A stretch of DNA of 64,000 nucleotides from Escherichia coli (GCF_048403405.1 NZ_CP183129.1); one strand, 5' to 3'; positions 6,001 to 18,000 are shown, numbered from the stretch's first letter. A program made the numbers.

Positions 6001-9000
6001 ATGAACTGATGGCCGATCTCGAAAAAGAGACGGTCGATTTCGTTGATAACTATGACGGCACGGAAAAAATTCCCGACGTCATGCCAACCAAAATTCCTAA
6101 CCTGCTGGTGAACGGTTCTTCCGGTATCGCCGTAGGTATGGCAACCAACATCCCGCCGCACAACCTGACGGAAGTCATCAACGGTTGTCTGGCGTATATC
6201 GATGATGAAGACATCAGCATTGAAGGGCTGATGGAACACATCCCGGGGCCAGATTTCCCGACGGCGGCAATCATCAACGGTCGTCGCGGTATTGAAGAAG
6301 CTTACCGTACCGGTCGCGGCAAGGTATATATCCGCGCCCGTGCTGAAGTGGAAGTTGACGCCAAAACCGGACGTGAAACCATTATCGTCCACGAAATTCC
6401 GTATCAGGTAAACAAAGCGCGCCTGATCGAGAAGATTGCGGAACTGGTAAAAGAAAAACGCGTGGAAGGCATCAGCGCGCTGCGTGACGAGTCTGACAAA
6501 GACGGTATGCGCATCGTGATTGAAGTGAAACGCGATGCGGTCGGTGAAGTTGTGCTCAACAACCTCTACTCCCAGACCCAGTTGCAGGTTTCTTTCGGTA
6601 TCAACATGGTGGCATTGCACCATGGTCAGCCGAAGATCATGAACCTGAAAGACATCATCGCGGCGTTTGTTCGTCACCGCCGTGAAGTGGTGACCCGTCG
6701 TACTATTTTCGAACTGCGTAAAGCTCGCGATCGTGCTCATATCCTTGAAGCATTAGCCGTGGCGCTGGCGAACATCGACCCGATCATCGAACTGATCCGT
6801 CATGCGCCGACGCCTGCAGAAGCGAAAACTGCGCTGGTTGCTAATCCGTGGCAGCTGGGCAACGTTGCCGCCATGCTCGAACGTGCTGGCGACGATGCTG
6901 CGCGTCCGGAATGGCTGGAGCCAGAGTTCGGCGTGCGCGATGGTCTGTACTATCTGACCGAACAGCAAGCCCAGGCAATTCTGGATCTGCGTCTGCAGAA
7001 ACTGACCGGTCTTGAGCACGAAAAACTGCTCGACGAATACAAAGAGCTGCTGGATCAGATTGCGGAACTGCTGCGTATTCTGGGTAGCGCCGATCGTCTG
7101 ATGGAAGTGATCCGTGAAGAGCTGGAGCTGGTTCGTGAACAGTTCGGCGACAAACGTCGTACTGAAATCACTGCCAACAGCGCCGACATCAACCTGGAAG
7201 ATCTAATCACACAGGAAGATGTGGTGGTAACACTCTCTCACCAGGGCTACGTGAAGTATCAGCCGCTTTCTGAATACGAAGCGCAGCGTCGTGGCGGGAA
7301 AGGTAAATCTGCCGCACGTATTAAAGAAGAAGACTTTATCGACCGACTGCTGGTGGCGAACACCCACGACCATATTCTGTGCTTCTCCAGCCGTGGTCGC
7401 GTCTATTCGATGAAAGTCTATCAGTTGCCGGAAGCCACTCGTGGCGCGCGCGGTCGTCCGATCGTCAACCTGCTGCCGCTGGAGCAGGACGAACGTATCA
7501 CTGCCATCCTGCCGGTGACCGAGTTTGAAGAGGGCGTGAAAGTCTTCATGGCGACCGCTAACGGTACCGTGAAGAAAACTGTCCTCACCGAGTTCAACCG
7601 TCTGCGTACCGCCGGTAAAGTGGCGATCAAACTTGTTGAAGGCGATGAGCTGATCGGCGTTGACCTGACCAGCGGCGAAGACGAAGTAATGCTGTTCTCC
7701 GCCGAAGGTAAAGTGGTGCGCTTTAAAGAGTCTTCTGTCCGTGCGATGGGCTGCAACACCACCGGTGTTCGCGGTATTCGTTTAGGCGAAGGCGATAAAG
7801 TCGTCTCTCTGATCGTGCCTCGTGGCGATGGCGCAATCCTCACCGCAACGCAGAACGGTTATGGTAAACGTACCGCAGTGGCGGAATACCCGACTAAGTC
7901 GCGTGCGACGAAAGGGGTTATCTCCATCAAGGTTACCGAACGTAACGGTTTAGTGGTTGGCGCGGTGCAGGTAGATGACTGCGACCAGATCATGATGATC
8001 ACCGATGCCGGTACGCTGGTACGTACTCGCGTTTCGGAAATCAGCATCGTGGGCCGTAACACCCAGGGCGTGATCCTCATCCGTACTGCGGAAGATGAAA
8101 ACGTAGTGGGTCTGCAACGTGTTGCTGAACCGGTTGACGAGGAAGATCTGGATACCATCGACGGCAGTGCCGCGGAAGGGGACGATGAAATCGCTCCGGA
8201 AGTGGACGTTGACGACGAGCCAGAAGAAGAATAATTTTACTTCTTCATGCCAAAAGGGAGCTATCTCCCTTGTTTGAATTGAAAAGTCCAGGCTGCAAAG
8301 TCTGGGCTTTTGTCGTATTAGGGCGCGGTAAAGTTTTGCTGTGCTCATAAAAAATGGCTGGCTTTACACAAGGAATGTGGCAATGAGTGGTGAAAAAAAG
8401 GCGAAAGGCTGGCGGTTCTATGGTCTTGTAGGTTTGGGCGCAATAGTACTGCTTTCCGCTGGCGTCTGGGCGTTGCAATATGCTGGCAGTGGGCCAGAAA
8501 AAACGTTGTCGCCGCTGGTGGTGCACAACAATCTGCAAATCGATCTCAATGAGCCGGACCTCTTTCTCGACAGCGACTCTCTGAGCCAGCTTCCCAAAGA
8601 CCTCCTTACCATTCCGTTTCTCCACGATGTTCTGAGTGAAGATTTCGTTTTCTATTATCAGAATCATGCCGATCGTCTGGGCATTGAAGGCAGCATTCGC
8701 CGCATTGTCTATGAACACGATCTCACGCTGAAAGATAAGCTCTTTTCGTCACTCTTAGATCAGCCCGCGCAGGCGGCGCTATGGCACGATAAACAAGGCC
8801 ATCTTTCACATTACATGGTGCTGATCCAGCGCAGTGGTTTAAGCAAACTGCTGGAGCCATTGTTGTTTGCCGCTACCAGCGACAGCCAGTTAAGCAAAAC
8901 GGAAATCAGTAGTATTAAGCTAAATAGTGAAACCATCCCGGTTTATCAGTTGCGCTATAACGGCAATAACGCCCTGATGTTCGCGACTTATCAGGACAAG

Positions 9001-15000: not shown

Positions 15001-18000
15001 CCGCGAAACAGCAGGGGCAATTGCTGGAAAAAGCGCGAAATGAAATGGGCGAATTGGCCTATATGGTGCCGGTGAAAGAACTGACGGGAACGGTCACTTT
15101 CCGCCATTTGCTGCGCTTCTCGCAAAAAGGGCAATTCGTTCTGCCTCCTGCTCGTTATGTGCGTTCCTATGCACCTGCACAGCAAAGTGTTGCGGCAGGG
15201 AGTGAATGGACCGGGATGCAGGTGAAATAAGTGAACTGGCGCAGAATTGTCTGGCTATTGGCGTTGGTTACTCTGCCAACGCTTGCGGAGGAGACGCCGT
15301 TACAACTGGTGCTGCGCGGTGCGCAGCACGATCAACTGTATCAGCTGTCGTCATCAGGCGTGACCAAAGTCTCAGCATTACCTGACACGCTCACCACGCC
15401 GTTAGGGAGTTTGTGGAAACTGTATGTTTACGCCTGGCTGGAGGATACCCATCAACCGGAGCAGCCCTACCAGTGTCGCGGAAACTCCCCGGAAGAGGTT
15501 TATTGTTGTCAGGCTGGGGAGAGCATAACGCGCGATACCGCGCTGGTACGTTCCTGTGGACTCTATTTTGCGCCGCAGCGGTTGCATATTGGCGCAGATG
15601 TGTGGGGGCAATACTGGCAACAGCGTCAGGCACCGGCGTGGTTAGCGTCTCTTACTACGCTGAAGCCAGAAACCTCGGTAACGGTTAAATCACTGCTTGA
15701 TTCATTAGCGACGTTACCCGCGCAAAACAAAGCTCAGGAAGTCTTACTGGATGTGGTGCTGGACGAGGCGAAAATCGGTGTCGCATCCATGCTCGGTAGT
15801 CGGGTACGGGTGAAAACCTGGAGCTGGTTTGCCGATGATAAACAGGAAATCCGTCAGGGTGGTTTTGCCGGCTGGTTAACCGATGGTTCACCGCTGTGGG
15901 TTACTGGCAGTGGCACCAGCAAAACGGTACTAACCCGTTATGCGACGGTGCTTAATCGGGTTTTGCCAGTGCCGACGCAGGTTGCCAGTGGGCAATGTGT
16001 AGAGGTGGAGCTGTTTGCCCGCTATCCGCTGAAGAAAATCACAGCGGAAAAGAGTACGACGGCAGTAAAACCCGGCGTACTTAATGGGCGCTATCGTGTG
16101 ACATTTGCCAATGGTAACCACATTACGTTTGTCAGCCACGGTGAGACGACCTTACTGAGCGAAAAGGGCAAACTGAAATTGCAGTCGCATCTTGATCGTG
16201 AAGAGTACGTTGCCAGAGTTCTGGATCGCGAGGCGAAAAGTACGCCCCCTGAGGCAGCGAAAGCCATGACCGTGGCGATTCGCACTTTTTTACAGCAAAA
16301 CGCCAATCGGGAAGGCGATTGCCTGACCATCCCCGACAGTAGCGCCACGCAGCGTGTTTCTGCTTCGCCAGCGACCACGGGGGCGCGAACGATGACCGCC
16401 TGGACGCAGGATCTTATCTATGCGGGCGATCCGGTTCATTATCATGGCAGTCGCGCTACCGAAGGGACGCTTTCCTGGCGGCAAGCCACGGCCCAGGCGG
16501 GGCAGGGAGAGCGTTACGACCAGATACTCGCGTTTGCTTATCCCGACAACAGCCTTAGCCGCTGGGGAGCGCCACGCTCAAGCTGCCAGTTATTACCCAA
16601 AGCGAAAGCCTGGCTGGCGAAAAAAATGCCGCAGTGGCGGCGTATATTACAAGGCGAGACGGGGTACAACGAACCAGACGTGTTTGCGGTCTGTCGTTTA
16701 GTCTCAGGTTTCCCCTATACCGATCGGCAGCAGAAACGGCTGTTTATTCGTAACTTCTTTACGCTTCAGGATCGGCTCGATTTAACCCATGAGTATCTGC
16801 ACCTGGCCTTTGATGGTTATCCCACCGGGCTTGATGAGAACTATATCGAAACGCTGACCCGACAATTATTAATGGACTAATGCTATGCGAAAGATTTTTC
16901 TTCCGTTGTTACTGGTGGCGCTTTCGCCTGTCGCTCACAGTGAAGGTGTGCAGGAAGTCGAGATTGATGCACCGCTCTCTGGCTGGCATCCGGCAGAGGG
17001 CGAAGATGCCAGTTTTTCACAATCGATCAATTACCCGGCGTCGTCCGTCAACATGGCAGATGATCAAAATATCTCAGCGCAGATCCGCGGCAAAATAAAG
17101 AATTATGCTGCGGCGGGTAAAGTTCAGCAGGGCCGGCTGGTGGTCAACGGTGCCAGTATGCCGCAGAGAATTGAATCCGATGGTTCATTTGCACGCCCTT
17201 ATATTTTTACTGAAGGCAGCAACAGCGTGCAGGTCATCAGCCCGGATGGGCAAAGCCGACAAAAAATGCAGTTTTACTCAACGCCGGGCGCTGGAGCGAT
17301 CCGCGCGCGTTTACGGCTGGTTCTCTCCTGGGACACGGACAATACCGACCTCGACCTTCACGTTGTTACACCTGATGGCGAACACGCCTGGTACGGTAAC
17401 AGCGTGCTGAAAAACAGTGGTGCACTGGATATGGATGTCACGACGGGGTACGGCCCCGAGATTTTCGCCATGCCAGCGCCGATTCACGGACGTTATCAGG
17501 TGTATATCAACTACTATGGCGGACGCAGCGAAACGGAATTGACGACCGCCCAACTGACGCTGATCACCGAGGAAGGATCGGTCAATGAGAAACAGGAAAC
17601 ATTTATTGTACCGATGCGTAATGCTGGCGAGCTGACGCTGGTGAAAAGTTTTGACTGGTGATTAATGGGGTTACCTTCGCCGTCGATGTTCAAGAAAACG
17701 CCCGATAACTTTCGCTATCGGGTGTTTTTATTGATTAATTCAACCGTTCAATCACCATCGCAATTCCCTGGCCGCCACCAATGCACAGTGTTGCCAGCCC
17801 CAGCGTTTTATCGCGTGCCTGCATGGCATGTAATAGTGTGACCAGAATACGAGCACCACTGGCACCGATAGGATGCCCGAGCGCGATGGCCCCGCCGTTG
17901 ACATTCACTTTCTCAGAATCAAAGCCCAGGGTTTTCCCAACGGCAAGGAACTGTGCAGCAAATGCTTCATTAGCCTCAATGAGATCAATATCCGCCAGTT

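Follow-up and report, generated by a model that had tools for sequence, protein, structure and literature searches.

The yfaA-yfaT-yfaS-yfaQ-yfaP cluster of Escherichia coli: a probable five-gene form of the Mag type II alpha-2-macroglobulin operon, with a frameshift in yfaS

Gene organisation of the cluster

Five open reading frames (ORFs), yfaA-yfaT-yfaS-yfaQ-yfaP, lie on the + strand downstream of gyrA (5607-8234) in a 64,000-nt stretch of Escherichia coli DNA (GCF_048403405.1 NZ_CP183129.1; hereafter the window, from the first letter of which all coordinates are counted), and together they span 8383-17661 (Table 1). We propose that this cluster is a known system and no new kind of system, i.e. 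the five-gene enterobacterial form—magB-C-D-E-F-like, devoid of magA—of the Mag operon, which is built around a type II alpha-2-macroglobulin (A2M); we hold this reading to be about 80% probable. Bacterial A2M systems are regarded as a simple kind of immunity in the periplasm, and those of type II (Mag) have recently been tied to resistance against type VI secretion system (T6SS) effectors that degrade peptidoglycan. The cluster, whose base composition is unremarkable, is matched in 5,425 of the 5,426 complete E. coli genomes (in 5,178 of them a single piece spans 80% of it or more), yet we found no experimental work on the E. coli proteins in the literature searched.

The genes follow each other very closely. 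Their coordinates and three of their junctions, already described in a first-pass annotation made from the sequence alone, were all verified: yfaA and yfaT overlap by ATGA, the GTG start of yfaQ (15231) comes directly after the TAA stop of yfaS (15228-15230), and yfaQ and yfaP are 4 nt (TGCT) apart. To these we add a fourth junction, the yfaS ATG at 10625 overlapping the end of yfaT by 67 nt. Each of the five products begins with a hydrophobic segment (read by eye), in agreement with the signal peptides or anchors announced for all of them: YfaA displays a single helix at about residues 12-34, behind a KKAKGWR stretch, and the N-termini of YfaT, YfaS, YfaQ and YfaP look like signal peptides ending AHS/E, ANA/DD, TLA/EE and AHS/E respectively. 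The idea of a multi-protein architecture of the envelope is supported in so far as the cluster codes for exported or membrane-anchored products around one that is A2M-like. AF2 models were built for YfaA and YfaP.

Table 1. Coordinates of the yfa genes, of the yfaS lesion and of the flanking elements in the window
Feature	Position	Strand	Description
Two stem-loops 3' of gyrA	8254-8271, 8282-8311	+	likely gyrA terminators (terminator scan, RNA fold)
yfaA leader element, ACACAAGGAAUGUG	8366-8379	+	4-bp hairpin with AGGAA (GGA) in the loop; overlaps the Shine-Dalgarno sequence
yfaA	8383-10071	+	562 aa, DUF2138, single N-terminal transmembrane helix; MagB counterpart
yfaT	10068-10691	+	207 aa, DUF1175/MagC family; signal peptide and NlpC/P60-like domain
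yfaS, whole	ATG 10625 to 15230	+	A2M-like; frameshifted
yfaS, 5' part	10625-11464	+	putative signal peptide and first ~240 mature residues; premature TGA, 279-aa product
A7 homopolymer, +1 insertion	11450-11456	+	A6 in other genomes; frameshifts yfaS
yfaS, 3' part	11457-15230	+ (+1 frame)	MG2, bait-region, A2M and bacterial MG10 domains; otherwise intact
yfaQ	15231-16880	+	GTG start, 549 aa; signal peptide, SpoIID-like domain; MagE counterpart
yfaP	16885-17661	+	258 aa, signal peptide, two beta-sandwich domains; counterpart of MagF and of its paralog MagA
Stem-loop between convergent yfaP and atoB	17701-17722		likely bidirectional terminator, operon end; T-runs on both sides

Kinship with the Mag operon

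A collection of genomes was scanned with YfaT as a probe, one genome per species being retained, and this returned 80 loci from other species. All 80 have the gene order yfaA-yfaT-yfaS-yfaQ-yfaP, and a distant metagenomic locus (L089) shows the five genes in this order too. This co-occurrence, which the first-pass annotation had wished to see analysed, supports its description of a conserved cluster; the cluster is also a known one, the Mag operon having already been described.

The comparison with magABCDEF of Pseudomonas aeruginosa (PA4492-PA4487) is straightforward: MagB corresponds to YfaA, MagC to YfaT, MagD to YfaS, MagE to YfaQ and MagF to YfaP, in the same order and with the same tight coupling of the genes. 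On both sides the A2M has a bait-region domain but no CxEQ motif, and a signal peptide which for YfaS is a putative one, and the anchor protein has one N-terminal transmembrane helix. P. aeruginosa MagC, which has been crystallised (PDB 7bk8), is matched by YfaT with an E-value of 6.7e-103 and 74.2% identity (138 of 186 positions), and the homologs of YfaA, YfaQ and YfaP—DUF2138, DUF2300 plus SpoIID, and DUF2135—occupy the magB, magE and magF slots in the six-gene Pseudomonas clusters. The genes flanking yfaS, for which established and unrelated functions could have been found, are thus homologs of Mag components.

Differences appear as well. The A2M gene is frameshifted in the window, a point discussed further below; and Escherichia, like the other Enterobacterales sampled, lacks the first gene, magA, which encodes a paralog of MagF. 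This upstream YfaP paralog (about 40% identical) was found in the Pseudomonas and Ca. Methylobacter loci that have enough upstream sequence, whereas the five-gene form is that of all 10 enterobacterial loci, e.g. in Escherichia, Superficieibacter, Enterobacillus, Yersinia alsatica and Edaphovirga. In the window no YfaP-like gene precedes yfaA: that place is taken by gyrA and terminators.

The DUF2138 family is small, with 355 clusters at 50% identity among 1.84 billion representatives, and NCBIfam offers for YfaA nothing but an uninformative "hypothetical protein" equivalog. The spread of the cluster among Enterobacterales is patchy: it was observed in Escherichia, Superficieibacter, Enterobacillus, Entomohabitans, some Yersinia, Serratia, Pectobacterium, Edaphovirga, Chania, Cronobacter, Enterobacter kobei, and Salmonella enterica including subsp. 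salamae. YfaT of E. coli is 67-77% identical to its Pseudomonas homologs and 67-80% identical to the other enterobacterial ones. Together, this patchiness and these similar identities hint at a horizontal spread.

The function of the cluster was at first described as poorly defined, which understates what is established for the ortholog: it has been localised, its partners have been mapped, and both protease trapping and protection against T6SS have been shown (PMC3735191, PMC5764988, PMC12663445). The sizes of MagA to MagF, their signal peptides and the paralogy of MagA and MagF have been tabulated (PMC3735191). MagD is periplasmic, associated with the inner membrane through MagB, its anchor and stabiliser, and binds MagA, MagB and MagF in a 1:1 ratio; it traps TEV protease in vitro once its bait is cleaved, no thioester being involved; its processing from 165 to 100 kDa depends on MagB and MagC, this cleavage being lost in a magC mutant and altered in a magE mutant; and MagA, MagB and MagF are degraded when MagD is missing (PMC3735191, PMC5764988). 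Besides, a CRISPR interference (CRISPRi) study of 2025 found the mag operon, a member of the GacA regulon, to be protective against VgrG3 and Tae1, T6SS effectors directed at peptidoglycan (PMC12663445).

YfaS, a probable macroglobulin of type II

Searched against Pfam, the downstream yfaS frame gives MG2 (1.1e-26), A2M_BRD (8.2e-18), A2M (3e-12) and bMG10 (2e-6). Once the frame is repaired (see below) the protein contains no CxEQ thioester motif, and C1189 is the sole cysteine of its mature part. A multi-macroglobulin (multi-MG) architecture with a bait region and without thioester is what defines type II bacterial macroglobulins (PMC5764988). YfaS displays precisely this combination, multi-MG with a bait-region domain and no CxEQ, albeit on a frame that is interrupted as sequenced. 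The search against PDB returned only a marginal match, to complement C5 (E-value 8e-4), of which no stretch passes alone.

The N-terminus, MDTQRF..., resembles by eye a substrate of signal peptidase I. A lipoprotein anchor was considered, the tetrapeptide IAAC being lipobox-like, and rejected as improbable, because this tetrapeptide is located inside the hydrophobic core and because its C is changed to Y in Escherichia sp. E1V33.

The start codon deserves a comment. In strain 219 the RefSeq/PGAP annotation places the start of yfaS at a GTG (10715 in the window), which removes the whole signal peptide. The ATG at 10625, used by K-12, is the only start that yields an export signal. Of 82 loci, 80 have an ATG at this distance (67 nt) from the yfaT end; its presence there is imposed by the codons with which YfaT encodes R-W-I-P (cgATGGATACC). 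In the Pseudomonas loci there is an additional in-frame ATG at the stop of the yfaT homolog (ATGA overlap), which would give a signal peptide of 19-26 aa. E. coli reads ATAG at this place: the ATG is lost, so that the start lies 63 nt further upstream, hence the overlap of 67 nt.

The type I systems, i.e. YfhM (ECAM) of E. coli or Sa-A2M of Salmonella together with PBP1C (PBP, penicillin-binding protein), offer a second point of comparison. There too a large multi-MG periplasmic protein carries a bait region, and its gene is followed with zero spacing by that of a peptidoglycan-related protein: in K-12 the yfhM stop abuts pbpC (L091, K-12 2645013-2652287) as the yfaS stop abuts yfaQ. According to the literature, however, type I macroglobulins are lipoproteins with a CxEQ thioester that trap proteases covalently, and have one partner gene, whereas YfaS has neither the thioester nor a conserved lipobox and is accompanied by four accessory genes.

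YfaT and YfaQ: conserved domains and motifs

The first-pass annotation saw in A2M the only recognisable domain of the cluster. Profile searches with hidden Markov models (HMMs), which it had suggested, do recover the families that it named (DUF2138, DUF1175, A2M, DUF2300 and DUF2135), but the cluster is not one of "DUF only" proteins: YfaT belongs with MagC, which is NlpC/P60-like, and YfaQ carries SpoIID.

YfaT matches the Pfam family DUF1175 (1.5e-58), which newer Pfam releases call MagC (PF06672), and reaches for NLPC_P60 a score of 20.1 bits (6e-4), under the gathering score of 23. The positions of the NlpC/P60 triad, C55, H148 and H160, are 100% conserved in 82 sequences. Hence YfaT unites the fold of NlpC/P60 papain-like peptidases, seen in MagC, with their Cys-His-His residues. 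The difference with these peptidases is that the family of MagC is described as inactive, though able to bind peptidoglycan (PMC10318531, which cites Zouhir 2021).

YfaQ appears more composite. Apart from DUF2300, Pfam recognises SpoIID (PF08486) with 27 bits for a gathering score of 23; SpoIID exceeds this score in all 28 members of the YfaQ family, the best E-value being 3.8e-8, and distant members reach 37-41 bits over positions 6-96 of the 97-position profile. Searched against PDB, the diverse profile of the family retrieved SpoIID structures (4rwr at 1.8e-4, 5i1t and 5txu at 0.03) and no other family. In this SpoIID-like domain, at about residues 312-445, E334 is invariant and lines up with Glu101 of 5txu, which we take to be the catalytic residue of Clostridioides difficile SpoIID. 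The likeness to the SpoIID/LytB lytic transglycosylases includes the EEY..V...E motif and, more weakly aligned, the C-terminal SpoIID motif; it is nevertheless limited, the match covering part of the fold with modest scores (27-41 bits), and YfaQ has two further conserved domains. No report of a lytic transglycosylase activity of YfaQ on glycan strands was found.

One of these, the C-terminal domain, contains the invariant H520-E521-x-x-H524 followed by the invariant E536 and E540, so to say a zinc-peptidase-like HExxH...E signature, which we propose at the level of the motif only. The other, N-terminal, contains the invariant G59-S60-x-W62-K63, S108-C109 and K195-T196. Two weak and independent signals would place its SxxK and its ALVRS on the active-site motifs of PBP transpeptidases: PF00905 scores 21.9 bits in one distant YfaQ member, below the threshold of 22.1, and hhalign of YfaQ with E. 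coli PBP1C (E-value 0.005, probability 7%) puts SxxK on SxxK and ALVRS on ALVRS. PBPs were absent from the matches of the family profile in PDB, and the comparison of YfaQ with FtsI gave nothing, so that we mention these signals as a lead and not as a result. A different organisation was also considered: Pfam DUF2300 matches both halves of YfaQ (84-205 and 412-532), but tandem DUF2300 repeats were rejected, since the C-terminal HMM misses the N-terminal half and hhalign assigns the pair a probability of 0.3%. In the literature that could be read we found no mention of these invariant YfaQ/MagE motifs; the Mag papers consider that MagE may be a chaperone of the cytoplasm.

Taken further, the motifs draw a picture in which YfaQ, with PBP-like, SpoIID-like and HExxH...E modules, and YfaT, with its Cys-His-His, would be the enzymes of a peptidoglycan-coupled trap, one or both of them processing the macroglobulin (the cleavage from 165 to 100 kDa) and/or sensing or repairing damage to the wall, and in which YfaS with YfaQ and YfaT would be the analog of YfhM with PBP1C. 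We regard this picture as unlikely. In any case the motifs (E334, HExxH and SxxK in YfaQ, Cys-His-His in YfaT) are concrete targets for a mutagenesis aimed at the roles of the accessory Mag proteins.

A possible mode of action

Gene content, junctions, homology, gene order, motifs and the position and rarity of the yfaS lesion were read directly from the DNA and from the genomes compared; for function we rely on the literature on the Pseudomonas ortholog and suppose that the E. coli proteins behave alike, the roles of YfaT and YfaQ being inferred. YfaS would be exported by means of its signal peptide and form a multi-MG cage with a bait region and without thioester; YfaA, as a single-pass protein of the inner membrane, would tether and stabilise it, and YfaP, with its two beta-sandwiches, would bind it as an accessory subunit. 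A hydrolase entering the periplasm would cut the bait, upon which the cage would close non-covalently. YfaT (NlpC/P60-like) and YfaQ (SpoIID-like) might then link the trap to peptidoglycan and/or process YfaS. The net role would be to shield the periplasm and the cell wall from foreign enzymes, e.g. proteases of the host or T6SS effectors that degrade peptidoglycan. In the present genome, the extra A truncating YfaS after 279 residues, the trap would be missing.

Several points weigh against this scheme. The function is borrowed from a homolog, with 43-77% identity between the components, the searchable literature containing nothing on the E. coli proteins; and E. coli lacks magA, the product of which is a confirmed partner of MagD. 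MagC and MagE gave no stable binary complexes with MagD (PMC3735191, PMC5764988), and MagE of P. aeruginosa fractionated with the cytoplasm (PMC3735191), so that the periplasmic and peptidoglycan-directed roles proposed above are tentative. The DUF1175/MagC family is moreover described as catalytically inactive though peptidoglycan-binding (PMC10318531). Finally, the frameshift itself might come from an error in sequencing, and the operon would then be intact here.

The balance between proteases and peptidoglycan could also be different. The complex might mainly survey, protect or repair peptidoglycan rather than inhibit proteases, the A2M-like protein caging enzymes that cleave glycans or peptides, or shielding against them, while YfaQ and YfaT act on the wall, in parallel with YfhM-PBP1C. 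The protection given by the mag operon concerns specifically the peptidoglycan-targeting VgrG3 and Tae1 (PMC12663445), and YfaT/MagC, NlpC/P60-like with an invariant Cys-His-His, is reported to bind peptidoglycan (PMC10318531); YfaQ contributes its SpoIID-like domain, in which the catalytic Glu position is invariant, the weak PBP-transpeptidase signals round its SxxK, and a start abutting yfaS just as pbpC abuts yfhM in K-12. On the other hand MagD does trap a protease in vitro (PMC5764988), MagE was found in the cytoplasm (PMC3735191), no enzymatic activity is reported for MagC (PMC10318531), and the PBP-like signal remains below threshold (21.9 for 22.1 bits, with an hhalign probability of 7%). 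We consider such a primarily wall-directed role possible, if on the unlikely side, and keep to the Mag-like trap as our preferred reading.

The extra A in yfaS

As sequenced, yfaS is a pseudogene. The run of A at 11450-11456 is one base longer than in other genomes (A7 instead of A6), which shifts the frame, so that it stops at the TGA 11462-11464, after 279 codons. The first-pass annotation reported a frameshift in yfaS and left it unlocated; it is placed here at this A6 to A7 change. It is distinct from the lesion of K-12, which was ruled out as its origin: K-12 has A6 at this place, and the break in its yfaS lies close to the 3' end and leaves ORFs of 1372 and 161 aa. Strain 219, which has A6 at the site, is otherwise identical to the window in an alignment over 9.6 kb, and for at least a dozen strains A6 is the sole departure from 100% identity over 9.6 kb. 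Deleting one A in silico restores a YfaS of 1534 aa identical to that of strain 219, which shows that yfaS has no second lesion.

The A7 allele is rare. The 5,364 complete E. coli genomes in which the region is present all lack the 41-mer containing it; 4,950 of them differ from this 41-mer by exactly one position, consistent with A6, and an 81-mer spanning A7 is likewise absent from the complete E. coli genomes scanned. This rarity, the A6 of strains that are otherwise identical, and the integrity of the rest of yfaS, which means that the event is very recent or never happened, would all suit an error of sequencing or assembly in a homopolymer, the true run being A6 and the operon intact and functional. 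However, the exact 279-aa product exists in a public protein collection (P0241); it comes from a 1.1-kb ENA metagenome contig (L086) which also has A7 and differs from the window by 9 single-nucleotide polymorphisms over 1,111 bp. That the allele is seen once independently argues against a pure artefact, without excluding one, and yfaS is moreover broken in other ways elsewhere, as described below. We therefore judge an error unlikely, though it deserves to be kept in mind: the frameshift of the first-pass annotation is confirmed as A7, while its conclusion that the cluster is disabled has to be tempered by this possible homopolymer error.

A genuine A7 need not silence the gene if the run is a slippage site that lets some full-length YfaS be made, by transcription or by translation, or if it acts as a phase-variable on/off switch. 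The lesion indeed falls within a homopolymeric A run, the A7 allele was found twice in different backgrounds, and E. coli is known to show slippage at runs of A. Yet seven A's are short for efficient slippage, and no genome with the A7 41-mer among 5,364, 4,950 being one position off, is not the pattern of a phase-variable tract. We hold slippage to be very improbable; programmed frameshifting and phase variation were rejected, no polymorphism of run length being seen among the 5,364 genomes.

If the yfaS of the window is indeed truncated, the whole complex is probably lost in this genome, with its partners destabilised, by analogy with the magD mutant of P. aeruginosa. As yfaQ starts at the yfaS stop, its translation may be impaired as well.

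Other lesions of yfaS were observed. Apart from K-12, many entries from Shigella and E. coli are truncated YfaS. Two ENA metagenome E. coli contigs (L083 and L084), both A6, have an insertion of 155 bp just downstream of the A run (contig positions ~5810-5965). It looks like a tandem duplication, since the first bases of the insertion repeat those of the neighbouring yfaS sequence, and would be either a frameshifting lesion or an assembly artefact. Furthermore, two E. coli proteins (P0045, 674 aa, and P0011, 659 aa) join in frame, at different junctions, an N-terminal piece of YfaA and a C-terminal piece of YfaQ, which is consistent with independent deletions removing yfaT and yfaS in some strains. 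It appears that yfaS has been lost repeatedly through different lesions, which suggests that the system is dispensable in some niches. For functional work it is preferable to use E. coli strains with an intact yfaS, such as strain 219 or 042, and neither K-12 nor the present strain as sequenced.

Operon boundaries and yfaA leader

The anatomy of the cluster is, on the DNA, that of a single operon with its own promoter, because the junctions overlap or abut and terminator hairpins stand only at both flanks. The sequence thus gives no sign of the separate transcription that would have contradicted the first description. Upstream, the two hairpins of gyrA likely separate it from the yfa operon: the RNA of 8236-8330 folds with -32.9 kcal/mol (z = -3.1), and none of 200 shuffled sequences folds as well. 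Downstream, the stem-loop between yfaP and atoB was found by the terminator scan of the minus strand, and TGTTTTTATT follows the stem on the + strand. Inside the cluster the scan counts 14 terminator-like matches for 12.1 expected, i.e. not above chance. A scan with the sigma-70 consensus found no promoter 5' of yfaA. Rfam detects no structured RNA family in 8000-18000, and PADLOC no anti-phage defence family.

The leader of yfaA contains the element ACACAAGGAAUGUG, identical in E. coli, E. whittamii, Escherichia sp. E1V33 and E. albertii despite diverging upstream sequence. Its hairpin appears in the minimum free energy structure, the energy of which is not unusual (z = -0.07). The magA leader of P. 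aeruginosa is a reported target of RsmA (PMC3735191). The element of yfaA resembles a CsrA/RsmA site and is possibly a CsrA site; we give it as a lead only, the literature having yielded no link between yfaA and CsrA.

A side observation concerns gyrA. GyrA reads Leu83 and Asn87 (codons 83 and 87; window 5607-5936). The wild-type segment being HPHGDSAVYDTIV, these residues would presumably be the classical S83L and D87N pair of fluoroquinolone resistance, which suggests that the window comes from a quinolone-resistant lineage.

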